Source of the DNA: an uncultured Candidatus Saccharibacteria bacterium
GTDB taxonomy: Bacteria > Patescibacteriota > Minisyncoccia > Minisyncoccales > GWA2-38-27
DNA: 22,423 nt
Assembly (NCBI GenBank): GCA_964479375.1
Contig: CAYZKD010000002.1
Coordinates: 46,100-68,522 of the forward strand
Direction: 5' to 3'
A program made the position numbers and the translations under genes. Positions 1-16,965 of the stretch are shown here, in pieces. Under the pieces are notes generated by a model. The model was not told the origin of the DNA. It saw only the letters and a program-made list of their open reading frames with translations, and searched no databases. The number at the start of each line of letters is the position of its first letter. The first letter of the stretch is position 1.

Positions 1-1499
1 TATCAGACTTGGCTGAAGTCTTTCCTGTCCCTTCCCAGTTAACACAGGCTCTGGGTAATCTGGAGGGAATAACAGGCATTATCCAAGATCCTACTGACAT
101 CTCCAATATAATGGCTTCTATGGCAGATCTTTCAGAGATAGCTCCTCTTCCTGAATCCCTTGCCAATGTTTTGGGAAACCTAAGCGATTTAGGAAATCTC
201 ATGCCCATGGGGCCCGGAGGAATAGCGGGTTCCTTCTTGGGCGGGTCTTGCACTTGCGACCCCTGCAAAGATGTAAGGGGAAATATCCAAGAGCAAGAAG
301 CCAAAAACCTCGGCGCGATGTACTCGGGTGCAAAAATTGCTCAAACAGACGCCTTGGGAAATAAAACAGAAATAACCACTAGTTTAAAAGACGAACAGAA
401 TAAGGCGACAAAAGAAATACGCCTCATTAAAGAAGAAATAGACAAACTGGAAAGGGCGGAAAGTCTTATTTTAGGTTGCCCCATCTGGAACCTAAGCAGT
501 TTGGCAGAATTTTTGGATAAGAAAATCATTTATTCAGAGAATGAGTGGTTCCTTATTAATATCAGTTTTTGGGAAACAATCGTTGGCATTGCTAAAGATA
601 ATGAATGGGCAACTCTTTACTGCCCGGTCAGCGGCACCTATTGGGGCGAAGCAGAGTCGGCTATGAACCGGGCAGAAGAAAAAGAGGAAGAGGAAACAGA
701 AAAAGAATCCCTTGCGCTTGAAATAGCTCCCATATCTTGTTCTATAGAAGTCCCCGCAGGGGATGTGTTTGAAAGAACAAAAAAAACAGCATACAAAATA
801 GTAGAAAGATTAGAAAAAATAATCAGCGCCAACAAAGAGCTAATAGAGGCTGTAGACGAACTGCATACCCTGGTCAGCCAATGTTCTTCTCAGGCTCCCT
901 ATCCTGCTGTCTCAAACCGGAAAGGCTGCCTTTCTATCTGCATCCCGACAGCCTTTGGGTGTATAGAAAGGTGCGTGGGACAGCCCTGCCCCGATAAATC
1001 AATTGAAGAGAGTTTTCAGCAAATTATTAATATTATTGAAGGAATGCCGAACCGACCCGCTGGCGAAGAAAAAAAGGAAAAGGAGGGCATAAGGGATATT
1101 GTGCGCGCCAAGAAGAAAAATACCCCGGAGGCGACAAGAGACCCGGACAGAAGGGAACAAATAGGGCTGGCTACAATAATAGACCAAGAAGTGCCCAAGA
1201 TACTGGAAGATTTAGAGGTATTGGTCAGAAAGCCAATGAAAAAGTGCGTTGGGGGCACAGCATTATTGTCTTGTCCAAGCGCTCTTAGACAAATCGGTCC
1301 AGAAGGAGAGCCCCTTAAGTCCTGCCACCGCGAAGAAGGCTGGTACCAAGACTGCGTTTCTCAATGTTATCTAGAAGTAGGTCAAAAATCATACAGCGCC
1401 TGCCTTAAAAAATGCTTAGAAGAAACGGGCGCTCGCTACAATGTAAGAGATATTGCCGAAGGCCGTCATTTATTTAATTTTTACTGCTGCCACCCATAA
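1..1499 (+). CDS. 5'-truncated CDS (first Met at 9, frame open to window edge). Cys-rich secreted-type domain protein, paralogous to the C-terminal extension of the downstream pilin-like gene. Its N-terminal pilin-like part is presumably upstream of the window.
   Basis: The 496-aa ORF has no in-frame stop between position 3 and the Met at 9. It shares blocks with the ORF at 1502-2794: 'DLSEIAPLPESLANVLGNLSDL...GGSCTCDPC' aligns with 'SLAEAIKSAPQPLLNASLELKNL..ECDCQNTRAICLC', and 'SQCSSQ...KGCLSICIPTAFGCIERCVGQPCPDKSIEE..IINII' aligns with 'SQCFAS..TYGCHDRVEGCQPDKCQGGNPCPMGEI..ISKI'. A roughly 200-aa predicted coiled coil lies between the Cys clusters. There is no transmembrane segment in the visible part. 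Confidence 0.6.
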   Translation, partial: SDLAEVFPVPSQLTQALGNLEGITGIIQDPTDISNIMASMADLSEIAPLPESLANVLGNLSDLGNLMPMGPGGIAGSFLGGSCTCDPCKDVRGNIQEQEAKNLGAMYSGAKIAQTDALGNKTEITTSLKDEQNKATKEIRLIKEEIDKLERAESLILGCPIWNLSSLAEFLDKKIIYSENEWFLINISFWETIVGIAKDNEWATLYCPVSGTYWGEAESAMNRAEEKEEEETEKESLALEIAPISCSIEVPAGDVFERTKKTAYKIVERLEKIISANKELIEAVDELHTLVSQCSSQAPYPAVSNRKGCLSICIPTAFGCIERCVGQPCPDKSIEESFQQIINIIEGMPNRPAGEEKKEKEGIRDIVRAKKKNTPEATRDPDRREQIGLATIIDQEVPKILEDLEVLVRKPMKKCVGGTALLSCPSALRQIGPEGEPLKSCHREEGWYQDCVSQCYLEVGQKSYSACLKKCLEETGARYNVRDIAEGRHLFNFYCCHP

Positions 1500-1501
1500 T
1501 T

Positions 1502-2794
1502 GTGAAAATGATAAATAACAAAAAAATTGTGGCCGGTGTCCTGTTAGCGACAGTGAGTTTGGTTTTAACTGCCCCTGTTTTCTCCGGCAATAACGGAGAA
1601 TTTTCTGAAGGAAGGCCCCTTGAAATCGATTACCCCGAAATATCAGGCGTCCCCCCTTTAAAAACCACAGATGCTCCTCTTGCTTATTATGTTAGATATG
1701 TTTATAATTTCGCGATCATATCTTCCGGAGTTATAGCGCTTATCGTTCTTTTGACGGCAGGAATCCAATATCTCACTTCAACAGGGTCTCCCGAAAAAAT
1801 GAAAGGGGCCAAAAAACGCATCCTTTCTGTTTTCTGGGGAATAGCTATTTTATTCGGCTCTTATATCCTCCTAACAACGATAAACCCTCAAATGCTTTCC
1901 GCCCCATGGGAGGAGCCTCCGCCAATATCTTACCCGAAGCCCAGCCCTCCGCCCAACACTCCCTTCCCTACCAAAGATCTTTTGGGAAGGATAAGGAGTC
2001 TGGCAGAAGCCATAAAAAGCGCCCCTCAGCCTCTGCTGAACGCTTCTTTGGAATTAAAAAACCTAACTATGGAATGCGATTGTCAAAACACTCGCGCAAT
2101 CTGCCTTTGCACGGGAGGGGCCCCGGGAGCATCATGCGAACCTCGAGGCTGTTATGCCGGAGGCTCGGCCCATCCGTGTCCCCAGCCTGAAGAAATAAAG
2201 GTTTTGCAAAAAAACATAATAGATCAGAAGGATCTTATTCTTTACTCTCGGACCAGGGCTATTTCAGAAAAGGAAGACTTGGAGAGAGACATAGAAGAAT
2301 TTTTAAACTACGAAATAGCGTGGTATAATGAACAAATAGAAGTCGAAAAAGAAATCATTTCTCAGTCAGAAAGAGGAGTAAAAGAGGTTCACGAAAGAAG
2401 AGCGTACGAATTAGAGCAAAAAAGGGATTGGGTAAAAGAAAAGAGGTCTTATAAAGAAGATCTTATTCAAAAATTAGACGAACTGTCATCAGAGATCGCT
2501 CTTTTGGGCCCTCCCGCCGAAAAAATACCCCAACTATCAAGCCAATGCTTTGCCAGCGTCTCTGAAAAATGCGCCGCCACCTGCAAACAGGGCCCAACCT
2601 ATGGCTGTCACGACAGAGTAGAGGGATGCCAGCCAGACAAATGTCAAGGCGGAAATCCCTGTCCTATGGGCGAAATCCAAAACGAGATTTCTAAAATTAG
2701 CTCTCAGCCAAAAAAAATTATCGCTCTGTGTGACCAAATAATAGCCATTGTTAATAATATCAAAGAAGAACAAACGCTTAAGCGCTCTGACTAA
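1502..2794 (+). CDS. Secreted/membrane pilin-like protein. It has a signal peptide, a VirB2/TrbC-type two-helix hairpin, a Pro-rich linker, then Cys cluster, coiled coil and Cys cluster (430 aa, GTG start).
   Basis: N-terminal signal peptide MKMINNKKIVAGVLLATVSLVLTAPVFSG. Two hydrophobic helices (FAIISSGVIALIVLLTAGIQYL, then SVFWGIAILFGSYILLTTINPQ) are separated by the short charged loop STGSPEKMKGAKKRIL, the pattern of TrbC/VirB2-type pilins. A PPPISYPKPSPPPNTPFP linker follows. There are 8 Cys in ECDCQNTRAICLCTGGAPGASCEPRGCYAGGSAHPCP, about 110 aa of heptad-like charged sequence, then 7 Cys in SQCFASVSEKCAATCKQGPTYGCHDRVEGCQPDKCQGGNPCP. The stop of the upstream gene lies 2 nt before the start. 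Confidence 0.7.
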   Translation: MKMINNKKIVAGVLLATVSLVLTAPVFSGNNGEFSEGRPLEIDYPEISGVPPLKTTDAPLAYYVRYVYNFAIISSGVIALIVLLTAGIQYLTSTGSPEKMKGAKKRILSVFWGIAILFGSYILLTTINPQMLSAPWEEPPPISYPKPSPPPNTPFPTKDLLGRIRSLAEAIKSAPQPLLNASLELKNLTMECDCQNTRAICLCTGGAPGASCEPRGCYAGGSAHPCPQPEEIKVLQKNIIDQKDLILYSRTRAISEKEDLERDIEEFLNYEIAWYNEQIEVEKEIISQSERGVKEVHERRAYELEQKRDWVKEKRSYKEDLIQKLDELSSEIALLGPPAEKIPQLSSQCFASVSEKCAATCKQGPTYGCHDRVEGCQPDKCQGGNPCPMGEIQNEISKISSQPKKIIALCDQIIAIVNNIKEEQTLKRSD

Positions 2795-2797
2795 CTT

Positions 2798-4015
2798 ATG
2801 AAAAGGCTTATTATTCTCTGCCTCTTGGCAATAATTACTATCGTCTGCCTGCCCGACATAGCCGCCGCCGTCTCAGGACCTAGCCGAAATCTAGAAGTTA
2901 CTTATATTCCTTTCGCCGGAGAACCCGCCCCCACAAAAACGATTTCTTTGCCCGCATATGTTAAGTACCTCTATCACGGCGCCCTTGGCATTTGCGGATT
3001 TGTGGCCCTAGGAGTGCTTGTTTACGCCGGTTTTCAATATTTTTCTTCGGCGGGAGATCCTGAAAAAATAAAAGATTCTAAAAATCGAATCTTTTCGGCC
3101 ATTCTGGGGCTCGGAATTTTATTGCTCTCTTGGATAATTTTAAGCACAATAAACCCGCAACTGGTAGTGTTAAGATTGCCGGATGAATTGCCGCCCATTT
3201 TACCAAACCTAAACCCCGGCGTCTACCTTTGCAAAGAAAGAGTGGATATTGAAGGTTTTTGGCGCCAAAGACAAAGAGCTGAGTCCCAGTCTCCAGAAGA
3301 GCAAAAAAGGATTGTTTTAGGATTAGAACAGAAGCAAAAGGCTATCGATAATAATTGCTATATCGTTGGCGGCCAAGGCGGCATTCGAAAAACATTTAAC
3401 GACGAAGTGGACTGGGTTTACTTTGTCCCGGCCTTCAGAGAAAAGCAATATGGGGTTGTTCTTTATGAAGAAACGGGTTTTGGAGGAAGCTCTATGGTGA
3501 TATACGGCGACGGAAACCAGATCAAGGATTTAGAAAACCCTGTCGAATGGCTTCTGCCAGACGATTTTTTCGCCTCTTCGGCAAAGCCTTTCTTTTTTAA
3601 CTTCCGTCCTGACCCCTCCTGGTACGTTTCGGTTTTTCAATTAATCGACTACAATCGCGGCGAACCCGCAGCCGACGGCAAATGCTGGGCTGTAAGAAAA
3701 TTTGCTGGATGTGATGATATGGATATCGACGGAGTCACATACTATTTAAATCCTGGGCTGGGCCCTTTCCAGGAAACCGGATCTGTTAAAATTGAAGGAG
3801 ATTTAATCGCTATATTTTTTAAGAACCCGGGTTCTTGGACCCTAGAAAGCGAGATCGATGTTTACACCCAGAGCGACACTGATTTAAATAATAACAAAAT
3901 GGGGGATTGGCGGGAAGATTGCGTAGAAGAAAAAGGCGGTCCGGCGGGCTCATTCCGCGATCGGAGCTATCCCTGCGCCGACCGGATGATTATTGTTAGC
4001 GCAGAGATCTATTAA
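2798..4015 (+). CDS. Pilin-like paralog. It has the same signal peptide plus two-helix hairpin, fused to a different aromatic-rich C-terminal domain with a possible beta-gamma-crystallin-like Greek key (405 aa).
   Basis: Signal peptide MKRLIILCLLAIITIVCLPDIAAAVSG. The hairpin 'GICGFVALGVLVYAGFQYFSSAGDPEKIKDSKNRIFSAILGLGILLLSWIILSTINPQ' is collinear with the upstream ORF 'GVIALIVLLTAGIQYLTSTGSPEKMKGAKKRILSVFWGIAILFGSYILLTTINPQ'. The C-terminal domain contains 'VVLYEETGFGGSS', which fits the Y-x4-F-x-G Greek-key signature, plus scattered Cys. The gene starts 3 nt after the upstream stop. Confidence 0.7.
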   Translation: MKRLIILCLLAIITIVCLPDIAAAVSGPSRNLEVTYIPFAGEPAPTKTISLPAYVKYLYHGALGICGFVALGVLVYAGFQYFSSAGDPEKIKDSKNRIFSAILGLGILLLSWIILSTINPQLVVLRLPDELPPILPNLNPGVYLCKERVDIEGFWRQRQRAESQSPEEQKRIVLGLEQKQKAIDNNCYIVGGQGGIRKTFNDEVDWVYFVPAFREKQYGVVLYEETGFGGSSMVIYGDGNQIKDLENPVEWLLPDDFFASSAKPFFFNFRPDPSWYVSVFQLIDYNRGEPAADGKCWAVRKFAGCDDMDIDGVTYYLNPGLGPFQETGSVKIEGDLIAIFFKNPGSWTLESEIDVYTQSDTDLNNNKMGDWREDCVEEKGGPAGSFRDRSYPCADRMIIVSAEIY

Positions 4016-4026
4016 CTTTTTATGCG

Positions 4027-4506
4027 TTAGCGGGGCTTCACAACCACCCTTCTTTCTCTCCCCTCTCCCTTGCTTTCTGTTATTACGTCGCTTCTGTCCG
4101 CCAACTCCAGATGAATAACCCTCCTTTCATAAGAAGACATCGGAAGCATTGCTTTTTCTTCTTGGCTTAAAGCAACTTCATCCGCTAAAGAGCGGGCAGA
4201 CTCTTTCAGATAGTCTTCCTTTTTTTCTTTGTACTCGTTAATGTCTAAATCCAGATAAAAATTATCTTCTATTTTTCTTCTTGCCATAGATTTTATTAGT
4301 TTCTGAATTTCCATTAGCGTTTCCCCGCCCTGTCCTATTAATGTTTTAGGATCTTCTGTTGTAATTCTTACTGTTATTTTCCCGTCTTCTTTCTTTTCTG
4401 ATTCAATTTTCACCTCAAATCCGGCTTTCTCAAAAAACTCCCGGGTGATCTTTTTTATTTCTTTTAATGTTTTATCCCCGAACATTTTCTTTGTCTTTAA
4501 AAACAA
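4027..4506 (-). CDS. jag: Jag/KhpB RNA-binding protein with KH and R3H domains
   Basis: KH-type GxxG motif 'LIGQGGETL'. R3H-like 'ERRVIHLELA' near the C-terminus. The gene sits immediately downstream of yidC, as in the conserved rnpA-yidC-jag arrangement. Confidence 0.8.
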   Translation of the reverse strand: MFLKTKKMFGDKTLKEIKKITREFFEKAGFEVKIESEKKEDGKITVRITTEDPKTLIGQGGETLMEIQKLIKSMARRKIEDNFYLDLDINEYKEKKEDYLKESARSLADEVALSQEEKAMLPMSSYERRVIHLELADRSDVITESKGEGRERRVVVKPR

Positions 4507-5197
4507 AATATTGTTGCCCTATTGTGAACAAAGAAGTGGTTATCCAATAAAGACCGATAGCAGAGGGCAGGCGCAATAAGATTATAAAAGCGAATACGGG
4601 GAAAAGGAACTGGGCCTGTTTTTGGAATACCTCCCCGAACCCGCTCTCTTTTTTTGAGGATTGCTGGGGCATTTTAGTTTTCATCATCCGGGTCTGAAAG
4701 AATTGGGATATCCCCGCCAAAACGGCGATTGCCATCTTAGGCTCTGATAAGTCAATCAGCCCCAAAAAACTGGGGTCTATGGTGCCGGTAAAGTTAATAA
4801 AGCCGTACAAAAGATCTGTTTGTCCCTCTTTCAGCCCGGTCCAAAAAACGCGATAAAGAGCAATTAAAATAGGAAGTTGAGCTAAAAGAGGCAGGCAGCC
4901 GGAAAAAGGATTTATCTTTTCTTTTTTATACAATTCCATCAGTTTCTTGCTTTGCTCTTCTTTGTTGTCTTTGTACTTCTCCTGAATCTCTTTCATTTTG
5001 GGCTGGATACTGGAAAGAGCTTTCTGGGACTCAATGGCTTTTTTGCTCAGAGGGTAGAATAAAAACCTTATTGCTAAAGTTAATACAATAACGGCTATTC
5101 CGAAGTCGTGTCCCGGCAGGTAAAGATAAAGAAGCACCACAATATTCAACAGGGGTTGGTATAAAGCTACTCTGAAAAGATTAACTAAAAATTCCAT
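4472..5197 (-). CDS. yidC: Membrane protein insertase YidC (short Gram-positive/CPR-type form, 241 aa)
   Basis: Signature 'GCLPLLAQLPILIALYRVF' (YidC 'GClP.l.Q.PI..aly' motif). Multiple transmembrane helices. The position between yidD and jag fits. Confidence 0.85.
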   Translation of the reverse strand: MEFLVNLFRVALYQPLLNIVVLLYLYLPGHDFGIAVIVLTLAIRFLFYPLSKKAIESQKALSSIQPKMKEIQEKYKDNKEEQSKKLMELYKKEKINPFSGCLPLLAQLPILIALYRVFWTGLKEGQTDLLYGFINFTGTIDPSFLGLIDLSEPKMAIAVLAGISQFFQTRMMKTKMPQQSSKKESGFGEVFQKQAQFLFPVFAFIILLRLPSAIGLYWITTSLFTIGQQYFVFKDKENVRG

Positions 5198-5403
5198 TAG
5201 GGGAAATCAACACCCCCTTCGTTCCAGGGATGGCATTTTAAGATTCTTATAACTCCTTTTAAGACTCCCTTCCGGCTTCCGTATTTTGTTATGGCCAAAT
5301 GCGCATACTCGGAACAACTAGGATAGAATCTGCATCTCTTCCCCAGCAGCGGGGATATGGCGCTTTGGTAAAACCTAATTGCTTTTAAAAGGGTTTTTTT
5401 CAT
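5197..5403 (-). CDS. yidD: Membrane protein insertion efficiency factor YidD
   Basis: 'ISPLLGKRCRFYPSCSEYAHLAITKYG...ILKCHPWNEGGVDFP' matches the conserved YidD C..C...CHPW..GG.D motif. The 3' end overlaps the yidC start by 1 nt and the 5' end overlaps the rnpA stop by 4 nt. Confidence 0.9.
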   Translation of the reverse strand: MKKTLLKAIRFYQSAISPLLGKRCRFYPSCSEYAHLAITKYGSRKGVLKGVIRILKCHPWNEGGVDFP

Positions 5404-5738
5404 TCGCTTAGAAGGTCTGCTTTTTTAAGAATGTCTTTTATCAGGTCCCCGCAAACTTCTTCCGGCCGAAGCGGGGGGAATGCCAACAACACAACATCAA
5501 ATCCCTGCTTTACCGAAGAAAGATTCTGCCCTATCGCTTCTCTTATCTTCCTTTTGATTTTATTCCTCTCTGTTGCTCTTGAAGAGACTTTTTTACTGAC
5601 CGCGATCCCGAATCTGGTTTGGGAGAGATTGTTATCGGCGAATTTCAAAAGAAAAAATCTTCCCCTTGTTTTTTCTCCTTTTTTAAAAACCCTCTCAAAA
5701 TCTCTTTCTTTTTTAAGCCGGTTGGCCGCAGGAAGCAT
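5400..5738 (-). CDS. rnpA: Ribonuclease P protein component
   Basis: 'RLKKERDFERVFKKG...RFGIAVSKKVSSRATERNKIKRKIREA' is the typical RnpA basic motif. It is located between rpmH and yidD. Confidence 0.9.
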   Translation of the reverse strand: MLPAANRLKKERDFERVFKKGEKTRGRFFLLKFADNNLSQTRFGIAVSKKVSSRATERNKIKRKIREAIGQNLSSVKQGFDVVLLAFPPLRPEEVCGDLIKDILKKADLLSE

Positions 5739-6090: not shown

Positions 6091-7455
6091 ATGAACACCC
6101 AAGAAACTTGGCAAGCAGTTCTTGCCCAAATTCAACTAGATATTACTTCTACCAGTTATTCTACGTGGTTCAAGAATACTTCTCTGAAGGATGTCAAAAA
6201 AGGCAAGGCTGTAGTATCTGTTCCTAATTCTTTTGTGAAAGAATGGTTAGCAAATAAATACCATAGAAAAATCTTTAAAATACTATATAATCTAGACAGC
6301 AATATTAAAAAAGTAGAATATGCAGTAGCGGAGAAAAGAAAAAGGGAGGAACAGCCCCAGATAGAGCAGAACGTACTGCCAAGAGAAGAAGAGTCTCAGC
6401 TGGGATTCCGCGCTTTCCAAGTTAATAAAGACACTAATTTAAATCCTAAATATACTTTTGACTCTTTCGTGGTAGGCCCCTTTAACGAGCTTCCCCATGC
6501 TGCGACTCAAGTAGTAGCAGAAAAGCCGGGCTCTGTTTATAATCCTCTTTTTCTTTACGGAGGAGTAGGCCTGGGAAAAACCCACCTCCTCCAGGCCACG
6601 GGAAATAAGATCAACCAGTGCTTTCCAAAGAAAAAGATAAAATATATCTCCTCGGAAAAGTTCACCAGCGAAGTAATCGGCGCCATTAAAAACCAAAAGG
6701 CAGACCTCTTCAAGGCCAAGTACCGGGCTTTCGATGTTTTAATAATAGATGATGTACAATTTTTGGCCGGGAAAGAAAAGACTCAGGAAGAGTTTTTCCA
6801 TATCTTTAATATTTTGTACGAAAAAAATAAGCAGATAATAATTTCCTCGGACAGGCCCCCAAAATCCATCCACTCTTTGGCAGAAAGGCTAAGATCGCGC
6901 TTCGAAGGAGGGATGATAGCAGATATAAGCGCCCCAGACTATGAAACCAGGGTGGCGATTTTAGAAGCCAAGGCCCAAGAAAGAAACCAGGCCTTTCCTA
7001 AAGAAATTTATGAGTATATTGCCTCTGTGATCCAGAGGAATATAAGGGAGTTGGAGGGAGCGCTAAACCGCCTCATTATCTACCAAAAAATAAACGCCAA
7101 AAAGCCTGACTTAGAGGTGACTAAAAATTTGCTCAAAAACCTAATTTTCTCCCCCACCCAAGTAGCCACCCCTAAAAAAATTATCCAAGAAGTAGCAGGC
7201 TTTTATGACTTAAAGGAAGGGGATTTGCTGACAAGCTCAAGAAAAAAGGAAATCGTAAAACCGCGGCAGGTGGCTATGTATTTATTAAGAAAAGAGTTAA
7301 ATAGTTCCTTTCCTTTCATCGGCAGAAGGTTCAGCGGAAAAGACCATACAACAGCGATCCATTCCTATAAAAAAATTGCAAGAGATCTGGAAGACAATAA
7401 AAATTTAGAGGAAGAAATATCTTTGATAAAAGAGAGGGTTTTTAATAGCAGTTAA
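6091..7455 (+). CDS. dnaA: Chromosomal replication initiator protein DnaA
   Basis: Walker A 'GGVGLGKTHLLQATGN'. The AAA+ box 'VLIIDDVQFL'. A C-terminal DNA-binding helix-turn-helix region '...VAMYLLRKELNSSFPFIGRRFSGKDHTTAIHSYKKI'. Position between rpmH and dnaN. Confidence 0.95.
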   Translation: MNTQETWQAVLAQIQLDITSTSYSTWFKNTSLKDVKKGKAVVSVPNSFVKEWLANKYHRKIFKILYNLDSNIKKVEYAVAEKRKREEQPQIEQNVLPREEESQLGFRAFQVNKDTNLNPKYTFDSFVVGPFNELPHAATQVVAEKPGSVYNPLFLYGGVGLGKTHLLQATGNKINQCFPKKKIKYISSEKFTSEVIGAIKNQKADLFKAKYRAFDVLIIDDVQFLAGKEKTQEEFFHIFNILYEKNKQIIISSDRPPKSIHSLAERLRSRFEGGMIADISAPDYETRVAILEAKAQERNQAFPKEIYEYIASVIQRNIRELEGALNRLIIYQKINAKKPDLEVTKNLLKNLIFSPTQVATPKKIIQEVAGFYDLKEGDLLTSSRKKEIVKPRQVAMYLLRKELNSSFPFIGRRFSGKDHTTAIHSYKKIARDLEDNKNLEEEISLIKERVFNSS

Positions 7456-9071: not shown

Positions 9072-10388
9072 ATGAGACGCGGATGGATTTTGACAATCTC
9101 TCTTGCCCTAGAGGCATCTTTGATCGGATTGACTTTCTGGATTCTCTTTCCCCTCACCGTGATCGGAGGGGCTATAGCAGCAGTGTTCTCTTTCGCGGTG
9201 GCCCCCTTTTTGTTAGTCTACTTTTGGTGGGCTCCGAACAACCTTTTTTTTACTTTTGTGCGGGAGGGGACGGTAAAAATTATTGTCAAAGCTCATCAAT
9301 TTCACAGGGCCCTAATTCAGTTTAAGGGATATACCCTTGATGATCCCGGAACAACGGTTAATGTGGTACCTGCCGGGAAATGGCTTGATGGAGAGACCCT
9401 GGAAGAGTTAGAGGTAGTAGGGTCCCCCATTGACGAAGATAAAGGAATCTTGAAAATAAGAAAGAAATTTCATTTGCAAAGAAAAAAAAGAGTGGTAGAA
9501 AAAACAATGGAAAAAACAGTAAGAGGCGCTAAAAGGTTTAAAGAAAGACGACACCTTCTTGGTGGGTTGAGATTCTACGGATTCCCTTTGCCTTGGCCCA
9601 TTACCGACGTGTTTACCTATGAGTTCCAATGGACCGGAGTAAAAGAGAACGGCGAACTTGAACCCCATCCTCAAGAAACCCTCGATTATATTATGGTGAA
9701 AGACGATGTCTATGGTTGTAAAATTGAGCGAGCCGAAGATAAGGAGTTGATGCCCCTAGACGTTGAATTAATCTTAACGGCAAGAATTATTAACCCTTAT
9801 AAGGCTCTGTTCGCCGTAGAGAATTGGTTTGAGACGCTTATCAACCGAACCAGACCTTTTGTACGAGATTTTATTACTACGGGAACCTACGAAGAGTTTA
9901 CCAGTAAGCCAACCAGGATAGAGGTTGGGGTTTTCTCTCGCTTAAGAGAAGAAGGAATCTTGGATGAGCTTCAAAATCGTTACGGAATAGAACTAAGAAG
10001 AATTGAGGTTAACGACATTAATCCCGTTGAGCAGTTCCGAGAAGCTACTATGCAGCAAGTTCTTGCTCGGAGAGAAAGGGAGCAGATTTTGACTCGAGCC
10101 GACGCAGAAAGACAGCGGCTGGAAACCGTTGCCAGGGGGGAGAGCCAGAGGATCCAAAGGATCTATGGACAAGTCCGGCGATTCGGAGATCTTGGAAAAT
10201 TGGTGCGAACTCTTGAAGCATTAGAAAAATCTCCTGAGCAAGGAGCAAAGTGGGTTATCCCAATTCCCGGAATGACCAATCTTCTTTCTTCGCTCTTCCC
10301 GGGGAAGGATATTTCCTCGCTTTCTCCAGAAGATATAAGAGATCTTCGGGAGCTTGTTGAAGCGGCTCGCCGAGATCGTGAGGGATAA
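9072..10388 (+). CDS. SPFH/band-7 (stomatin/prohibitin/flotillin/HflKC-like) membrane protein, 438 aa
   Basis: Two N-terminal transmembrane helices. The C-terminal region 'ELRRIEVNDINPVEQFREATMQQVLARREREQILTRADAERQRLETVARGESQRIQRIYGQ' shows the characteristic SPFH-domain pattern of a coiled coil with an A/E/R-rich helix. Confidence 0.65.
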   Translation: MRRGWILTISLALEASLIGLTFWILFPLTVIGGAIAAVFSFAVAPFLLVYFWWAPNNLFFTFVREGTVKIIVKAHQFHRALIQFKGYTLDDPGTTVNVVPAGKWLDGETLEELEVVGSPIDEDKGILKIRKKFHLQRKKRVVEKTMEKTVRGAKRFKERRHLLGGLRFYGFPLPWPITDVFTYEFQWTGVKENGELEPHPQETLDYIMVKDDVYGCKIERAEDKELMPLDVELILTARIINPYKALFAVENWFETLINRTRPFVRDFITTGTYEEFTSKPTRIEVGVFSRLREEGILDELQNRYGIELRRIEVNDINPVEQFREATMQQVLARREREQILTRADAERQRLETVARGESQRIQRIYGQVRRFGDLGKLVRTLEALEKSPEQGAKWVIPIPGMTNLLSSLFPGKDISSLSPEDIRDLRELVEAARRDREG

Positions 10389-10445: not shown

Positions 10446-12710
10446 CTAACTTCTTTTTGACGTCCCGGCGGGCGGGCTCGGGGGTCTCTTGGACACCCCG
10501 CTGGGGCGTTTTCTCTCCTTCTTTTGCCTCCTTCTCTCCTCCTTTTGCCTCTTTTTTTTCTCCTTTGCGGTCTCTTCTTCCGCTTCCTCCTCCTGCCCCT
10601 CTTTTGCCCCTCTCGCTTCTTTTGCCTTTTCAATTTCGAACTTAGCGCCAGGCGTCAACTGGATTCCCGCGGCTTCTCCGGGCGTGCTAGAGGTCTCTCC
10701 TCCTCCTGTTTTTGTATCCCAAGGGGCCTGCCAGCCTGTTTGTTCCATCCTTTTGTCGTCTAAGGCCTTGAAATAACGCGGATCGGCCCCTTTATTTCCT
10801 CTTTTAAGGTATTCCTTATAGGCGTCTTGCTTTTCTTGGTTGTTTTTGTCAAAGAGATCTTCCGCGTGCTTTGTTAAGAAATTATTATAAGCCCGGCCCA
10901 TCCCCTCATGAGCTGCATCTTGCCCTCCTTTGACCTCATCGTTTATCTTAAGCCATCTATTCCTGTCAAATTTTTGCATAGCCGCCTCTGCTACTGCCGG
11001 GTCTTTCAGGGCGCCAGGATCCCAATTTTTAATATGCTGGGCTCTGGCCTCGTTAACTGCTTTTCTGATTGCGTCTTCTTTTGTGTTTATCCCCTTCTCT
11101 GGATTCTTTTTATATCCTCCGATACCGTGGGCGAACGCAATTTCAGCAAAACGGGGGTCGCCTCTAGTAATAGCATTAAGCTCGCCTCCGTTTTTAGCAA
11201 CCCTTAGCAAAGAGGCGGTCCCTTTGCGGAATTTTTCATTTTTGAATAATTCAGCAGTGTCTCCGGCTTTATATCTTTCTTGGGCGACCCTGAGCCAATC
11301 ATCGGCGTCTCCCCGGTTTACAGCAGTGAGCAATCCGGCTGTGGCCCTTTCTTTGGTAAAGGGTCTTCCTGTCTTAAACTTTCCGGGGACGGAGGCCTTG
11401 GCTATGTTTTCTGTAGACATATAATCCATTCCTTTTTGCTCTTCTTGAAGGCTTGGCTTTGTTTCAGCCACCCTTCTAAGATCCTCTGGTATGGCATGTC
11501 TTAAGAAAGGAACCTTTTGGGCCCCACTTACTATTCCCCCTGCTACTTTCCTCGTCGCTCTGTTATGCACAAGCCTTCTTTTAATCCCCCCTCCTACTTT
11601 CTTGCCTGCGGCCCTTGCCCCTCTTTTTCCTAATCCTTTCCCCATGTTGATTATAGAGGAAGCTCCTATCGCAGACGTTTGAAGTCCGAAGACTAGGCCT
11701 ATGCCGAGAAAAACGATAGGAACTGCATGTATCATCATAGCTGCGCCCAGTGTGCTTCCCGGATTGCTGAGATAGTTAATTCCCGTTTCAGCAAACTTTT
11801 CTGCGAGATAAAGAAAAAAACCGCATGTTATTCCGACGATTGACCATTGGAGAAATTGTTTTATCCAAAAATCCCAAAAACTACGAGTTGTGGGGAGAAC
11901 GTAAGAAGCGAAAGCGATAGGAGACAAAATAACCAGTATCCAAATTACTATATACCGCGCCAAAAAGAGGGCAGCGAAGATCATATAAACGAGAGCAGAT
12001 ATAATATAAACTGTGCCCAACGTCGCCATTTTCATTACTGCATTGACCAACTTCTCTCTGTCTTTGAAATTTCCCCAAACCTCCTTCTTTAAATCATTAA
12101 AAGTACTTTCGGTTCTCGAAAAAAAGTTTTCTCCCGGGGACATGCCCTGAATGAAAAAATTCATTACAATATTAGAAGCGTCTACTATCAGACCGCATAT
12201 AACGGGAGCGAAGTTTACTAAAAGAGCGACAATGACAAAAGTGACTAAAAGTTTTTTAGTTTGGTACCCCGCCAAATTGAGGATGGTAGCCATAGCGATA
12301 AATACAAGCACCAAAATAAGGACCATATTGACAAAGCCCTGAGTGATTTGCAAGCCGAGACCGATCATGGGATTTGTGGCGGGGTTAGTGTATCCTACGT
12401 TTCCAATAAAATCAGGGCTTAGGATCCATTTAAGTATAGCCATGGCGAGATCTGCCGAGAGAAAGGCAAGCACTCCAAAAAACCAGAAGGCGGTTCCGAG
12501 AAGGGAAAGACCGAGGCTCAGAAGCCCCTCTATGGCAGAAGTGAAAGTAGAGGCGGCGGTTTCCTTTACCCTTCCCTCCAGGTCCCACCAGGCAGCAGCG
12601 TGCGCTTCGTCAACAGGGAAAAGAGCGATAAAGGAGACGACAATTATTAGAATAAAGAAGCCCTTGTTTCTATAAATAAAAGAAAAGAGTTTTTTTGTTT
12701 TTCCTTTCAT
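10446..12710 (-). CDS. Polytopic membrane protein with about 8 transmembrane helices, a 400-aa hydrophilic domain and a polybasic/acidic low-complexity tail. It is a candidate VirB6/TrbL-like or novel envelope component.
   Basis: N-terminal transmembrane/signal segment GFFILIIVVSFIALFPV. About 7 further hydrophobic helices follow, for example MVLILVLVFIAMATILNL, LLVTFVIVALLVNFAPVICGLIV, YIISALVYMIFAALFLARYIVIWILVILSPIAFASYVL and AVPIVFLGIGLVFGL. After roughly residue 350 comes a long soluble region ending in ...EEEAEEETAKEKKKRQKEERRRQKKERKRPSGVSKRPPSPPAGTSKRS. I recognise no catalytic motif. The architecture of multiple transmembrane helices plus a large C-terminal domain resembles Gram-positive TcpH/VirB6-type proteins. 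That is inference only. Confidence 0.6.
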   Translation of the reverse strand: MKGKTKKLFSFIYRNKGFFILIIVVSFIALFPVDEAHAAAWWDLEGRVKETAASTFTSAIEGLLSLGLSLLGTAFWFFGVLAFLSADLAMAILKWILSPDFIGNVGYTNPATNPMIGLGLQITQGFVNMVLILVLVFIAMATILNLAGYQTKKLLVTFVIVALLVNFAPVICGLIVDASNIVMNFFIQGMSPGENFFSRTESTFNDLKKEVWGNFKDREKLVNAVMKMATLGTVYIISALVYMIFAALFLARYIVIWILVILSPIAFASYVLPTTRSFWDFWIKQFLQWSIVGITCGFFLYLAEKFAETGINYLSNPGSTLGAAMMIHAVPIVFLGIGLVFGLQTSAIGASSIINMGKGLGKRGARAAGKKVGGGIKRRLVHNRATRKVAGGIVSGAQKVPFLRHAIPEDLRRVAETKPSLQEEQKGMDYMSTENIAKASVPGKFKTGRPFTKERATAGLLTAVNRGDADDWLRVAQERYKAGDTAELFKNEKFRKGTASLLRVAKNGGELNAITRGDPRFAEIAFAHGIGGYKKNPEKGINTKEDAIRKAVNEARAQHIKNWDPGALKDPAVAEAAMQKFDRNRWLKINDEVKGGQDAAHEGMGRAYNNFLTKHAEDLFDKNNQEKQDAYKEYLKRGNKGADPRYFKALDDKRMEQTGWQAPWDTKTGGGETSSTPGEAAGIQLTPGAKFEIEKAKEARGAKEGQEEEAEEETAKEKKKRQKEERRRQKKERKRPSGVSKRPPSPPAGTSKRS

Positions 12711-12746: not shown

Positions 12747-13556
12747 TTAATATGTTTTAGCCAGTCTTGCCCAGTCTCTAATAGACAGGCCCTCTGCTCT
12801 TTTAGAAAAGGAAATGTCGCTTTTCTCGAGCCAGCGCCTTGCATGATCTTTTTCTAATTTTAACTCTTTTGCCAGATTGTTGGCAAGTTGTTTTCTCGGC
12901 TGGGAAAAGCCAGCTTTTGCTACGCGGAAAAACTTGTCATTAAATCCTGGGCTTCCCCTTTGTTTGTCCGGTTTTATTTTTAAGATAGCGGTGTCTATTT
13001 TAGGTTGGGGCAAAAAAGAGGATTTTTTTACATAGGATATTATTTTAGGAGAGGCATAGAATTGGACAGAAACCGCTAAAAGGTTCATTTTGGGGGGCTT
13101 GGCGCATATTCTCCGGGCTAATTCCTTTTGGACAAGAAGGGTCATGTCTTGCGGCTTGTTTCTGCTTTCTAAAAATTTCCTTATTGCGGGGTTGGCAAGA
13201 CAAAACGGCAGGTTGCCCACTGCTTTGTATCTCTTAAGATTCTGCAAATTAAAAGAAAGGATGTCGCCGTGATAAATCTGGAGATTTTTGAGACCCTCTA
13301 TCTTCTTTTGGAGAAAAGTTACCATTTTAGGATCTTTTTCCACAGCAACCACTTTTTTGGCTTTTTCGCAAAGGGAGCGGGTTAGGGCTCCGGCTCCCGG
13401 TCCTATCTCCAAAACAGTGTCTTTTAAAGAAACTTCTGCGGCGGTTATTATTTTAGATACGGCTTTTTTATCTATTAGAAAATACTGCCCTAGTTTTTTA
13501 GAGGGCCCGGAGTTCCCGAGAGCTTCTTTTGCTTGTCTTTTCAAATCGGAGGCCAT
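12747..13556 (-). CDS. rsmA: 16S rRNA (adenine1518/1519-N6)-dimethyltransferase
   Basis: 'LGQYFLIDKKAVSKIITAAEVSLKDTVLEIGPGAGALTRSL' matches the KsgA/RsmA GQNFL...VlEIGpG.GaLT SAM-binding signature. Length 269 aa. Confidence 0.9.
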   Translation of the reverse strand: MASDLKRQAKEALGNSGPSKKLGQYFLIDKKAVSKIITAAEVSLKDTVLEIGPGAGALTRSLCEKAKKVVAVEKDPKMVTFLQKKIEGLKNLQIYHGDILSFNLQNLKRYKAVGNLPFCLANPAIRKFLESRNKPQDMTLLVQKELARRICAKPPKMNLLAVSVQFYASPKIISYVKKSSFLPQPKIDTAILKIKPDKQRGSPGFNDKFFRVAKAGFSQPRKQLANNLAKELKLEKDHARRWLEKSDISFSKRAEGLSIRDWARLAKTY

Positions 13557-13650: not shown

Positions 13651-14763
13651 ATGATTGACGAGAAGCCTTCGAGTATATACAAGAAGATTTCTATAAAGAT
13701 AGGAGGATTTTTAAAGAAAAAGATTTTAAAACATAAACTCTTTTTCGCCCTGCCTACCCTGATAGCGCTTTTGATATTCAGCGCTTTTGTTTTTGGCTTT
13801 AGCTCCAGCCTAAAGCCTCTTTTATTAAAGAACTGTCTTTTGCTGTCTGTTGCTTCAGCAGAGAAAGCAGTATTCACTAAGGGAGATGTCTTTTTAAAAC
13901 CCACCCGCAATTTTTTGACAGGATCTGCCCAAATGACTTTTGTGGAGCAGAGCGCTGTAAAAGGCATGATTCCGCCTGCTATGGCTGACAGCCAAACATT
14001 GGCTACTAAAACAACACAGGATAAGCCGGAAAGAGGCAAAATAATCGAATATACGGTAGAAGAAGGAGAAAACATCTCTGCTATTGCAGAAGAGTTTGGG
14101 GTTTCTACGAATACTATTTTATGGGCAAACGATATCAGCCGCAATTCAACGATAAGGCCCGGGCAGGAAATAATTATTCTCCCCACATCGGGTGTCCTCC
14201 ATTTGGTTGAGAAAGGGGACACCATAGGCAGTGTTGCAGAAAAATACGAAGTATCTTCTGGAGAGATTGTTTCTTATAATGAACTTGAAAACGAAAATGA
14301 CATTTTTGTTGGAGATGTTTTATTGGTACCGGGAGGAAAGATGCCAAAAAAGCCTGTTCAAATTAATTCCACCCCGATAGCAGACTCTTATTTCATCTTC
14401 CCGACCGAGGGGAAGATTAGCCAAGGAGCTCATGGCGCCTTTGGCAATGCTGTGGATATAGCCAATTCATGCGGCAAGCCGGTAGTGGCTGCGGCCTCGG
14501 GCGTAGTGCAGAGAGCGGGGTATATAAGCATTGGAGGCAACAGGGTGACAGTTTTACACTCAAACGGCGTGGTAAGTTATTACGGCCACCTTTCCGTTAT
14601 AACAGTAGTTCCCAACCAGAGAGTAAGTGCGGGGGATGTTGTCGGGTACATTGGAAACTCCGGATATGCTATAGGGAGAACGGGTTGCCACCTCCATTTT
14701 GAAGTCAGAGGAGCCAGAAACTTTCTTCTTTCCTATCCTCTGGGAAGCCATGTGAGTTGGTAA
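13651..14763 (+). CDS. Membrane-anchored peptidoglycan hydrolase with 2 LysM domains and a C-terminal M23 (LytM-type) metallopeptidase domain
   Basis: Transmembrane segment 'LFFALPTLIALLIFSAFVFGF'. LysM repeats 'YTVEEGENISAIAEEFGVSTNTILWANDI..PGQEIIIL' and 'HLVEKGDTIGSVAEKYEVSSGEIVSYNEL...GDVLLVPG'. M23 motifs 'HGAFGNAVDIA', 'GYIGNSGYAIGRTGCHLHFEV' (HxH) and 'VLHSNGVVSYYGHLS'. Confidence 0.85.
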   Translation: MIDEKPSSIYKKISIKIGGFLKKKILKHKLFFALPTLIALLIFSAFVFGFSSSLKPLLLKNCLLLSVASAEKAVFTKGDVFLKPTRNFLTGSAQMTFVEQSAVKGMIPPAMADSQTLATKTTQDKPERGKIIEYTVEEGENISAIAEEFGVSTNTILWANDISRNSTIRPGQEIIILPTSGVLHLVEKGDTIGSVAEKYEVSSGEIVSYNELENENDIFVGDVLLVPGGKMPKKPVQINSTPIADSYFIFPTEGKISQGAHGAFGNAVDIANSCGKPVVAAASGVVQRAGYISIGGNRVTVLHSNGVVSYYGHLSVITVVPNQRVSAGDVVGYIGNSGYAIGRTGCHLHFEVRGARNFLLSYPLGSHVSW

Positions 14764-14815: not shown

Positions 14816-15166
14816 ACAATAAAGAGAAGAAGGGTGAATCTTTAACCGCGCCTCGGTTATATTTTTGCCGCACTTCTCGCACTTACCATAATCTCCTCTT
14901 TGAATCTTTTTTAGGGCCTTGTTTACTCTTTGCAACGCTAATTCCAAGCTGTGTTCTACGGGAAGGAGGTTGCTGTACTCTTCCACCTGGTCGGCAGCGT
15001 CTTCTAGGGCCTGTCCCCCCGATCCGCCGCTTGTTTTTGGGTAACGGACATCCCAGTCCCCTTCCATTTTTTTATCTTTTTCAGCAAAACTTCCCAATTC
15101 TTTTTCTAAAGACTTTTTTTCTTGCTCTAATTTGCTTTTTAATTTGGAAATAGCTTCTTTTTTCAT
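14795..15166 (-). CDS. DksA/TraR-family C4 zinc-finger protein (123 aa)
   Basis: The C-terminal 'CEKCGKNITEARLKIHPSSLYCKKCS' is the C-x2-C...C-x2-C DksA/TraR zinc finger. The N-terminal half is a coiled coil. Its start overlaps the stop of the upstream gene (ATGA-type 4-nt overlap). Confidence 0.7.
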   Translation of the reverse strand: MKKEAISKLKSKLEQEKKSLEKELGSFAEKDKKMEGDWDVRYPKTSGGSGGQALEDAADQVEEYSNLLPVEHSLELALQRVNKALKKIQRGDYGKCEKCGKNITEARLKIHPSSLYCKKCSQK

Positions 15167-16965
15167 TCTCCGTAAAGACTGTTAAGTTTTCTTCTAGTAT
15201 AGCCGTCCAGAATCCCCGTTCCTTCTGACAAGCCCTGAGGGGCCAGAATATCCGAAGCATACTTTTCCTGGAACCTGATAACGGCCTGCTTGGTAAGAGG
15301 CCCGAACCAGCCGCTGACTATACCCTTGGGGTAAACCTGCCTGTCTTCTGCTAACCAAGTCTGAAGCATTCTTACCTGATCCCCGCTGTTTCCAAACTTC
15401 AAATCTTTAGTTATCTGAGGGTGGGGCGGAATAATGCCCGAAGTTCCGTAAAGTTCGTTTAATTTGATGCGGGTGTACAGCCCGGTTTCTCCCGTTCCTT
15501 CTGACAAGCCCTGAGGGGCCAGAATATCTGAAGCATACTTTTCCTGGAACCTGATAACGGCCTGCTTGGTAAGAGGCCCGAACCAGCCGCTGACTATGCC
15601 CTTGGGGTAAGTTGTGGCGTCCTGAGACAGCCAAGTTTGGAGTACTTCTACTTCGTAGCCAATGTCGTTTAATTTGAGATTCTTAGTTATTTCTATTGTT
15701 CTGCCTGCAATGTTCAATCTTTCTATCGTTGCCTTCATAGATTTCCAGGAACTGGTGAACACAAAATAGTTATCAGAAACTAAATAACAAATACCAATAT
15801 CGTTTTTGGCTAGAGTCTGAAACCTGAAATTAGGCCCTTGGTAGCCCACCACGTTGGAAGAAGTTTTGAAGTAATGAGTAATCGGAGCCCGATCCTCTGC
15901 TATTAAGTTAAAGAGGGGAAGAAAATCTTCTCTCATGGACACCTCCTTGTCTCTCATAAATTCCTCCAGCCCCTTGCTGTCTTTCGCTCTAGCAGTAAAC
16001 CCTATTCTGTTTCCGTCTATTTGAGAGTATACGAATAAAGTGAAATCTTTTTCTATTTTATCGTAAAAAGAGCTGTCATTTATCCTTATCTGGAGGCTGT
16101 CGATAATCTGTTTGAGAGTAATTATTTCTTCATCCTTTTTTATTATTATTCTCTTAAACTTTCCCTGTTGCTCTTTTTCTCCCAAGGTTTGTTCTAAAAG
16201 GAGATGTATTTCGTCTAGAGTTTCAATATTAAAGATTCTTTTCTCTTCAACAGCAAAAAGGCCGGCAGGAATAACAGCGATTTCCTCCTCCTCTTCCTCC
16301 TCCTCTTCCTCCTCCTCTTCCCCTGCGGTCGGAGGGGCCGGGAGCGGCTCTTTTCTAATAATCAAATACCAGTACCAAAAAGTGGAAAGGCCGGCCAGAA
16401 TTACCAATACTAAACCGAAAATCAATGTTCTTACCCAGATTTTCTGGTGCCAGCTGAGTTTCTGAGGAAGAGGCCTAATCATTCGGATGGGCTTCTGGGG
16501 AGCGGGTCTTGCCTGCCCTCCGGGTTGCGTTTTTGGTTTTTCTGGTTCTTCCTGAGGCCCCTCTTTCGGTTGGCCCATTAGCAAACTTCGCCTCTTTTGG
16601 CTGAGGGTTCTTCTTGCTTGAGCAGGTTCTTCTTTTACGGGTTTTACAGGCTCTTCTTTGGGCTCTGGCTCTTTAGGTTCCTCCTCCTTTTTTTGAGAGG
16701 CTCTTTCTTGAACTTTATTTTTCAGGGCTTCAATTCTTTTCCTGGCTTTTTCGATGTCTTTATTTCCTGCTTCCTCCTCCTTCTCTTCTCGGGGAGTATT
16801 CTGTTTAATGATTTCGTTTAAGATTTCGCTAGGCGTGGCTCTCCCAATTTCTTTTTTTTCTAGAAAAGAAGCCTTTTCAGGATTCTGTTTTTTGATTTCC
16901 TGGAGGATCTCTACGTCAGAAATTCCCCTGTTCCTGGCCCTTTTAATTGATTCTACTATAGACAT
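15163..16965 (-). CDS. Single-pass membrane protein with two tandem C-terminal peptidoglycan-binding (PG_binding_1-like) domains and an internal poly-Glu tract (600 aa)
   Basis: Charged N-terminal cytoplasmic region with the internal duplication 'SDVEILQEIKKQNPEK' / 'PSEILNEIIKQNTPRE'. Transmembrane segment 'IWVRTLIFGLVLVILAGLSTFWYWYLII'. An E14 run. About 300 aa of unknown function. Two copies of 'VRMLQTWL..D...YPKGIVSGWFGPLTKQAVIRFQEKYASDILAPQGLSEGTG..G.YTR.KLN.LYG' match the PG_binding_1 consensus (LQ..L.....DG.FG..T..AV..FQ...GL..DG..G..T...L). Confidence 0.7.
   Translation of the reverse strand: MSIVESIKRARNRGISDVEILQEIKKQNPEKASFLEKKEIGRATPSEILNEIIKQNTPREEKEEEAGNKDIEKARKRIEALKNKVQERASQKKEEEPKEPEPKEEPVKPVKEEPAQARRTLSQKRRSLLMGQPKEGPQEEPEKPKTQPGGQARPAPQKPIRMIRPLPQKLSWHQKIWVRTLIFGLVLVILAGLSTFWYWYLIIRKEPLPAPPTAGEEEEEEEEEEEEEIAVIPAGLFAVEEKRIFNIETLDEIHLLLEQTLGEKEQQGKFKRIIIKKDEEIITLKQIIDSLQIRINDSSFYDKIEKDFTLFVYSQIDGNRIGFTARAKDSKGLEEFMRDKEVSMREDFLPLFNLIAEDRAPITHYFKTSSNVVGYQGPNFRFQTLAKNDIGICYLVSDNYFVFTSSWKSMKATIERLNIAGRTIEITKNLKLNDIGYEVEVLQTWLSQDATTYPKGIVSGWFGPLTKQAVIRFQEKYASDILAPQGLSEGTGETGLYTRIKLNELYGTSGIIPPHPQITKDLKFGNSGDQVRMLQTWLAEDRQVYPKGIVSGWFGPLTKQAVIRFQEKYASDILAPQGLSEGTGILDGYTRRKLNSLYGE
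15215..15334. repeat. Copy 1 of a 120-bp near-identical direct repeat (118/120 identical) inside the PG-binding-domain gene
   Basis: cccgttccttctgacaagccctgaggggccagaatatc[c/t]gaagcatacttttcctggaacctgataacggcctgcttggtaagaggcccgaaccagccgctgactat[a/g]cccttggggtaa. Confidence 0.9.
15491..15610. repeat. Copy 2 of the 120-bp direct repeat (offset 276 bp from copy 1)
   Basis: Same sequence as copy 1 with 2 mismatches. It encodes the second 40-aa PG-binding core. Confidence 0.9.
16283..16322. repeat. 12-bp tandem repeat (cctcctcctctt) x3.3, encoding E14 on the minus strand
   Basis: tcctcctcctcttcctcctcctcttcctcctcctcttcc, seen directly in the sequence. It is an in-frame GAG/GAA trinucleotide-type repeat. 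Confidence 0.9.

Follow-up and report, generated by a model that had tools for sequence, protein, structure and literature searches.

What do the three co-directional genes encode that open a 22,423-nucleotide stretch of contig CAYZKD010000002.1 (positions 46,100 to 68,522; hereafter the window), from an uncultured bacterium recorded as Candidatus Saccharibacteria, and which system might they serve? An earlier interpretation, made from the letters alone (the sequence-only reading), took them for tandem paralogs in which a pilin-like hairpin of the VirB2/TrbC type is fused to a large, divergent extracellular domain. Our analysis supports this view for genes 2 and 3. On sequence grounds, they encode VirB2/TrbC-type hairpin modules of T4SS_pilin (PF18895), a family specific to the candidate phyla radiation (CPR), each fused to a large C-terminal domain. 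That the proteins belong to the pilin family of type IV secretion systems (T4SS) and carry an extracellular extension is very probable. The three genes, their families (g1, g2 and g3) and the parts of their products are as follows.

1-1499, plus strand: gene 1, partial, Cys-rich extension of a g1-family long pilin, the N-terminal part being outside the window; the frame is open from base 3
1502-2794, plus strand: gene 2, T4SS_pilin-family long protein of 430 aa; alternative ATG start at 1508
1502-1585, plus strand: gene 2, predicted Sec signal peptide, aa 1-28, cleaved between ...APVFS and G (hydropathy and direct sequence reading)
1679-1882, plus strand: gene 2, VirB2-like helical hairpin, aa 60-127, with basic loop TSTGSPEKMKGAKKRI (AlphaFold2, PF18895)
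1880-1891, plus strand: gene 2, I-N-P-Q motif
1898-1969, plus strand: gene 2, Pro-rich linker, predicted to be disordered, aa 133-156, PWEEPPPISYPKPSPPPNTPFPTKD (pLDDT <50 at aa 133-146 and 154-156)
1970-2791, plus strand: gene 2, predicted extracellular extension, aa 157-430, a long helical bundle with two small Cys-rich β knots
2798-4015, plus strand: gene 3, T4SS_pilin-family long protein of 405 aa (PF18895, 36.2 bits; ortholog family n=12)
2798-2869, plus strand: gene 3, predicted signal peptide, aa 1-24, cleaved between ...DIAAA and V (hydropathy and sequence inspection)
2954-3151, plus strand: gene 3, VirB2-like helical hairpin, aa 53-118 (hydropathy, AlphaFold2)
3149-3160, plus strand: gene 3, INPQ motif
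3248-3355, plus strand: gene 3, helical hairpin ahead of the β-rich extension, aa 151-186
3356-4012, plus strand: gene 3, β-rich extension, aa ~187-405, modelled as two βγ-crystallin domains

Hairpin cores and extension domains

The close packing of the genes is as originally described. With the starts listed, the open reading frames (ORFs) 3..1499, 1502..2794 and 2798..4015 are separated by 2 and 3 nt; the first gap becomes 8 nt if gene 2 uses the ATG of its database entry (P0018, 428 aa). The ORF of gene 1 reaches the window edge, its frame having no upstream stop codon, and the corresponding database entry (P0001) begins at Met37. Promoter and terminator scans of the trio region gave no convincing internal operon break: terminator-like sites occur at chance rate, promoter-like sites somewhat above it.

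Hydropathy and AlphaFold2 models of genes 2 and 3 bear out the proposed architecture of a signal peptide followed by two helices with a short charged loop. The helices are at residues 60-92 and 97-127 in gene 2 and at 53-83 and 88-118 in gene 3, and the loops between them are short and basic (TSTGSPEKMKGAKKRI and SSAGDPEKIKDSKNRI, respectively). Over their N-terminal ~160 aa, the two proteins are 40% identical (BLASTP, E 2e-19), while they are unrelated beyond. The core consensus AG.QY..S.G.PEK...AK.RI...INPQ had been read correctly from the sequence. The loop and the mature N-terminus, LExxYP, are conserved features of the core.

The sequence-only reading named two Pfam families for comparison, and only one of them is matched above its cut-off. 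For PF18895, with a gathering threshold of 26.6 bits, gene 3 exceeds the cut-off (36.2 bits); gene 2 does so (28.0 bits) when its core is taken in isolation, the full-length protein scoring 23.6 bits. All 21 diverse cores taken from related loci also match PF18895, with E up to 0.01 and 2.9e-10 at best. For PF04956 (TrbC/VirB2), the threshold is 27.9 bits, whereas gene 2 scores 16 bits and the best relative (P0049) 26.6 bits. When the PDB was searched with a profile of the pilin core, no match reached significance, and all were to generic transmembrane hairpins, for example that of the HtrII transducer (E 0.4).

A cleaved signal peptide together with a basic and presumably cytoplasmic loop would place the C-terminal domains outside the cell, and their cysteine content fits this location. 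There are 21 cysteines in the visible part of gene 1, 15 in the extension of gene 2 and six in that of gene 3, and 0-2 in the other large proteins of the window. The PF18895 scores, the predicted topology and the cysteines agree with the claim of a VirB2/TrbC-type hairpin that is fused to an extracytoplasmic extension. In the three families, the extension comprises ~270-550 aa.

For gene 1, the core has to be traced through relatives. We found 17 homologs, 14 of them near-full-length (598-714 aa). A profile of the core, made from genes 2 and 3, matches each of these 14; in 12 the N-terminal core is complete (E 1e-20 to 1e-29). The sequence of gene 1 in the window aligns with its homologs from just past the Pro-rich linker. 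That this part is collinear with the extension of gene 2, as had been proposed, is borderline by BLASTP (E 0.02-0.03) and solid by profile-profile comparison of the two ortholog families (hhalign probability 98.7%, E 1.7e-16, 232 collinear columns). The first ~80 visible residues (window positions 1-250) are repetitive, of an L.NL..L type, and do not align with the conserved Cys-containing segment of the homologs. The g1-type extension is a separate ORF in four loci (L034, L044, L053 and L055), so gene 1 could be split or truncated here.

The extension of gene 2 contains two Cys-knot regions. An internal duplication is not significant by BLASTP (E 0.57), and a secondary hhalign match (E 4.9e-6) hints at a repeated helix-plus-Cys-knot module. 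The best Foldseek match of this extension has an E of 0.04, with TM-scores of 0.16-0.29.

Gene 3 carries a different C-terminal domain, as the sequence-only reading had stated: by hhalign, its extension is unrelated to those of genes 1 and 2 (E 0.2-0.34). The predicted model consists of paired Greek-key β-sandwich domains that can be superposed on crystallins. Unlike the microbial βγ-crystallins (Protein S, spherulin 3a, clostrillin, flavollin), gene 3 has no Pfam crystallin match at E ≤ 1 and no canonical Ca2+ motif, the N/D-N/D-x-x-S/T-S pattern being neither evident nor conserved when its alignment was inspected by eye. Profile searches of the PDB with the g2 and g3 families yielded nothing significant. 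We know of no other case in which a βγ-crystallin fold is fused to a T4SS pilin hairpin.

The gene trio in related genomes

The whole arrangement is seen on the contig (L001) of P0002, a protein related to gene 1 with 48% identity. Its 5' part encodes a 136-aa protein, PrgI, a TraC-like protein, a VirB4-like ATPase and a 163-aa protein. Then follow the trio (g1 682 aa, g2 402 aa, g3 395 aa) and, beyond g3, jag, yidC, rnpA, rpmH, dnaA, dnaN, a Band_7 gene and a VirB6-like gene. The Pfam scores on this contig are 33.6 bits for PrgI and, for the VirB4-type ATPase, 90 bits (P-loop_TraG) and 46 bits (AAA_10). Further contigs have either this order or the trio directly ahead of the VirB6-like gene. 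The order g1-g2-g3 is kept in ~15 distinct genomes, usually right after PrgI/VirB3, the TraC-like gene and VirB4 and in the other cases next to a VirB6-like gene, and full-length g1-family proteins from syntenic loci have 591-749 aa. The observation that the window has neither VirB4 nor VirD4 is correct, and it does hold a VirB6/TrbL-like gene and a fourth, shorter pilin-like gene. The absence of VirB4 applies to the window, not to the system, as VirB4 is immediately upstream of the trio in syntenic loci. In the genome studied here, a VirB4 gene upstream of gene 1 is predicted from synteny alone.

For a broader view, GTDB was scanned with the g2 family alignment as query, one genome per species, which gave 425 relatives; 78 loci were kept, and their ORFs were called and searched with local profiles. 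These loci contain 189 core-bearing ORFs, 176 of them complete, with a median protein length of 448 aa. At least 200 residues follow the core in 165 of the 176 complete ORFs. In more distant genomes, the arrays consist of 2-4 long ORFs with the core, and five loci have ORFs of ~810-900, 440 and 345-370 aa, the extensions of which are not recognised by the local profiles. Where the flanks are long enough, nearly every array comes after VirB4, with the 163-aa gene present or absent, or else adjoins the VirB6-like gene. Compared with 1.84 billion representative proteins, the core profile matched 71,645 at a threshold of E ≤ 0.001, a number that falls to 14,973 if E ≤ 1e-10 is required. Of the 85 single-core proteins within the top 150 matches, 71 carry at least 200 aa past the core. 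The long form is the norm for this type of core.

Some proteins depart from the single-core layout. More than one hairpin was found in 57 of the 142 newly retrieved proteins among the best 150 core-profile matches; these are putative, since they may be fused gene calls. Several such poly-pilins have 7-13 tandem hairpin copies in one chain (P0079 with 1775 aa, P0081 with 1147 aa, P0101, P0099 and others). In one locus (L074, 1799-5392), the hairpin core is at the C-terminus of a 1197-aa protein. As judged from sequence, the hairpin module is combined with many kinds of presumably extracellular domain.

According to their record titles, the genomes are Nealsonbacteria, Paceibacterota, Parcubacteria, Uhrbacteria, Wildermuthbacteria and generic Patescibacteria metagenome-assembled genomes (MAGs); a few look mis-binned. 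The long-pilin family thus appears confined to Patescibacteria-type MAGs, which is not the distribution of universal housekeeping genes.

The divergence of the paralogs had been attributed to diversifying selection, and at the scale examined this attribution does not hold. Each paralog has one conserved ortholog family, the gene order is fixed, and cysteines are conserved (14 of the 15 in the g2 extension occur in at least 25 of 27 sequences), which argues against hypervariability. In pairwise comparison, members of the g2 family are on average 51.5% identical over the core and 43.2% over the extension; for g3, the values are 51.8% and 31.6%, respectively. To judge from these alignments, the extensions evolve somewhat faster than the hairpin yet clearly under constraint, and the paralogs would be old and specialised, not hypervariable. 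Such conservation is not a test for positive selection, and with the closest ortholog 58% identical, synonymous sites are probably saturated for dN/dS.

No element of the family is more conserved than (T)INPQ, which closes helix 2 and lies just past the end of the Pfam model. N-P is kept in 168 of the 189 core-bearing ORFs, and I127, N128 and P129 of gene 2 are invariant in its family. Short canonical pilins (the fourth pilin-like gene of the window and its relatives of 129-178 aa) do not have INPQ but end with a W-T-G motif instead. INPQ could cap the helix, kink it where it leaves the membrane or be a site of protease processing. FlhB and YscU undergo autocleavage at NPTH, and the maturation of RP4 TrbC and Ti VirB2 includes C-terminal trimming. 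By analogy, we also considered Asn-Pro autocleavage at INPQ. As an obligatory step, this is unlikely because 13 otherwise typical members have other residues at the junction (S/D-P or N-T/D/N/I).

Much of the surrounding system has been described. The Patescibacteria-specific T4SS is related to the monoderm MPF-FATA systems and is often found near dnaA, dnaN, rnpA, ksgA and rpmH (PMC12102498, Quiñonero-Coronel et al. 2025). In the same study, VirB2-like pilins were found via PF04956 and PF18895, in 441 arrays of 2-11 genes with a mean identity of 25%. In Southlakia epibionticum, the one species tested, both the T4SS and the pilin array proved essential (PMC10633639, Wang et al. 2023); the system has no relaxase and usually no coupling protein (PMC11665869, PMC12857230). 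The same two reviews call the function of the Patescibacterial T4SS completely unknown and raise a pilus in a monoderm as a possibility. A 2026 preprint reports that PF18895 dominates freshwater-specific structural clusters and does not go into the domain architecture of these proteins.

The present locus shares PF18895, the PrgI/VirB3, VirB4 and VirB6-like genes, the dnaA/dnaN/rnpA/ksgA setting and the tandem divergent pilins with these systems. It differs in protein size: the five genes of the Southlakia array (SEML1_0006-0019) with a readable size encode ~125-185 aa, compared with 405-430 aa here and 591-749 aa in full-length g1 relatives, with conserved folded extensions according to the models. 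It also differs in composition, as the published arrays are variable and the trio is a fixed set of three ortholog families. The TrbC/VirB2 pilins (PF04956) have the same signal peptide and two-helix hairpin with a short basic loop, and lie beside VirB3, VirB4 and VirB6 homologs. Nevertheless, the proteins studied here are 3-6x longer and score below the cut-off of that profile; the TrbC/VirB2 systems are Gram-negative, while the host here is a monoderm without an outer-membrane core complex. The earlier statement that this is not a standard annotated system goes too far for the system as such, T4SS loci near dnaA with arrays of 2-11 genes having been published (PMC12102498, PMC10633639). It may stand for the long fused form, which is not mentioned in the Patescibacterial T4SS papers and the PF18895 preprint that were text-searched, a scope that takes in little of the subscription-journal literature. 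The apparent novelty lies in a long form of T4SS pilin that carries a further domain, in the conservation of three such members as a set and in the folds predicted for their extensions. For annotation, where the core profile reaches 14,973 protein clusters at E ≤ 1e-10, the label "VirB2 pilins" hides most of each long protein.

Proposed role and alternative explanations

How could such proteins function? The sequence-only reading suggested that the extensions could act as adhesin tips or host-interaction domains, and such a role may be theirs. We propose that the trio is the distal part of a chromosomal, origin-proximal T4SS locus of an ultra-small Patescibacteria (CPR) bacterium and that it encodes three long proteins of the T4SS_pilin (VirB2/TrbC-like) family, each of ancient origin and not interchangeable with the others. 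The proteins would be inserted via Sec/YidC, with the basic loop in the cytoplasm and the extension outside, where disulfides would stabilise it. The VirB4/VirB3/VirB6-like machine would engage their hairpins as it would VirB2. The three proteins would then join through these hairpins into a heteromeric tip or stalk complex, possibly capping a filament of a short pilin such as that encoded by the fourth pilin-like gene of the window. In this way, genes 1 and 2 may provide helical stalks and gene 3 a crystallin-type head, held beyond the cell wall for host contact. Overall, we see about an even chance that these are three specialised long pilin-family subunits of a T4SS that form a defined surface or tip structure. 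The specific idea of a tip complex is plausible, though we would place it somewhat short of even.

There are precedents for the logic of such an assembly. Minor pilins form tip complexes in type IV pili and type II secretion (GspH-I-J-K, PilV-W-X), and VirB5 is located at the T4SS pilus tip. The trio would resemble these in being a small, fixed set with a shared assembly module and larger, distinct outer domains, encoded by clustered genes in conserved order beside a separate short major subunit. This is an analogy, and homology is not claimed: the assembly modules are unrelated, and no sequence or fold similarity was seen among the matches listed.

Several points weigh against the proposal of three specialised subunits. 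Only the conserved order and co-occurrence of the genes speak for heteromeric assembly. Gene 1 has its N-terminus beyond the window, and its visible part is without the hairpin core. Short pilins were detected in few loci only, the flanks of the loci being limited. The TrbC/VirB2 profile is below its cut-off for every protein tested. The confidence of the gene 3 model is moderate (pLDDT 68), and the fold matches of gene 2 are generic, with VirB5 not among the matches listed. Finally, the hairpin is also fused to NlpC/P60 and SLT domains (P0057, 599 aa; P0058, 723 aa), and its fusion to such cell-wall hydrolase domains means that it may be a mere membrane anchor.

This last point leads to the view that these are surface proteins independent of the T4SS or loosely associated with it, in which a two-helix anchor carries Cys-rich adhesin or wall-associated domains. 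It would explain why the core is found with hydrolases and many unrelated extensions, or at the C-terminus of the 1197-aa protein in L074, and why the PDB profile search with the core yields only generic transmembrane hairpins. We nevertheless consider it quite unlikely, given that the trio recurrently adjoins VirB4, the 163-aa neighbour and the VirB6-like gene, in several gene arrangements, that the near-zero intergenic gaps suggest co-transcription with T4SS genes, and that the conserved loop and mature N-terminus (LExxYP) point past anchoring. The proteins may instead be true pilins, each paralog polymerising alone into decorated homopolymeric pili or serving as an alternative major pilin. 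Several paralogs would then confer versatility in host range or antigenicity, as has also been suggested for the arrays in PMC12102498, where divergent pilin arrays are reported to be common in Patescibacteria. The homology of the hairpin to VirB2/TrbC-type pilins speaks for this, and with the C-terminus outside and a flexible Pro-rich linker, the extension could project radially from a filament. On the other hand, one-to-one, single-copy families in fixed order with conserved cysteines in ~15 genomes fit distinct roles better, and an extension of 270-550 aa per subunit would seem bulky for a VirB2-type lattice, although no calculation underlies this. Chains with 2-13 hairpins and the hairpin-hydrolase fusions also indicate that the module is used beyond free subunits. 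We regard homopolymeric pili as unlikely.

The junction motif raises the question of whether the proteins are precursors, cleaved at (T)INPQ into a canonical pilin of ~95 aa and a free, secreted Cys-rich protein. The most conserved motif is exactly at the hairpin-extension junction, and it is followed by a disordered Pro-rich linker. However, the 13 junction-substituted members argue against obligatory Asn-Pro autocleavage, the conserved neighbourhood revealed no dedicated protease, and the motif may simply cap a helix at the membrane surface; such processing seems improbable to us. It is very improbable that the helical bundles of genes 1 and 2 constitute a ClyA-family α-pore-forming translocon at the T4SS tip. 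No Foldseek match reaches E 0.001, TM-scores are 0.16-0.29, and the extensions of genes 1 and 2 lack a hydrophobic head or tongue segment. The ClyA-type reading was dropped, being unsupported by both Foldseek scores and hydropathy.

We return to the proposal of specialised subunits. If the outer part of a T4SS is made of pilin-family proteins with large, conserved, folded domains, these would be concrete candidates for host recognition or host-envelope contact. One could express and localise such extension domains, block them with binders and compare them between host ranges. Tentatively, and at less than even odds, we extend the proposal to a large part of the Patescibacteria. Their T4SS, a system that epibiotic life requires elsewhere in the phylum, might end in a heteromer of three (or 2-4) long pilin-fusions and not in a simple VirB2 pilus. 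Disulfide-locked stalks with a crystallin-type head would then be a device for host contact or penetration, and the extensions would set which host is recognised. If true, domain-carrying T4SS pilins would form a class not recognised before, comparable in function to minor-pilin tips or to the tip/translocon proteins of injectisomes.

Other genes of the window

The remainder of the window contains the following genes.

4027-5738, minus strand: jag, yidC, yidD, rnpA
6091-7455, plus strand: dnaA
7662-8795, plus strand: dnaN
9072-10388, plus strand: Band_7/SPFH protein
10446-12710, minus strand: VirB6/TrbL-like polytopic membrane protein, 754 aa (weak Pfam TrbL match, 16.4 bits vs a cut-off of 25.9)
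12747-13556, minus strand: ksgA
13651-14763, plus strand: M23/LysM peptidase
15163-16965, minus strand: peptidoglycan-binding protein, 600 aa
16971-18353, minus strand: highly charged protein, 460 aa
18358-20457, minus strand: PNPase
21592-22311, minus strand: fourth, shorter pilin-like gene, 239 aa (PF18895, 25.7 bits, just below the cut-off)

The 754-aa VirB6-like protein, probably an "extended VirB6", has at least six hydrophobic segments in its N-terminal part, whereas its C-terminal part is long and hydrophilic. Its homologs adjoin the trio, a pilin array or PrgI-VirB4 in 46 of 79 distinct loci, and it is a likely partner of the pilin trio. The fourth pilin-like gene is of the canonical type (VPCG...C..C, hairpin, WTG) with a Cys-rich tail of ~100 aa. 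It has short relatives of 129-178 aa in five loci (L048, L062, L069, L075 and L081) and is a candidate for the major pilin, the subunit of the filament.

The Band_7/SPFH gene adjoins the VirB6-like gene here, and the two are paired in at least 15 related loci, which suggests a conserved association of this membrane-scaffold protein with the T4SS. The 460-aa protein is almost entirely an E/K/R-rich predicted coiled coil with no cysteine and no hydrophobic segment, and its gene gives rise to a strong AT skew (-0.56). Its homologs recur in the T4SS neighbourhood (L010, L032, L048, L063 and L076). The genes for the M23/LysM peptidase and the peptidoglycan-binding protein keep their place near ksgA, the VirB6-like gene and the pilin array in conserved synteny. 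Their products are candidate partners for remodelling of the wall and could replace VirB1.

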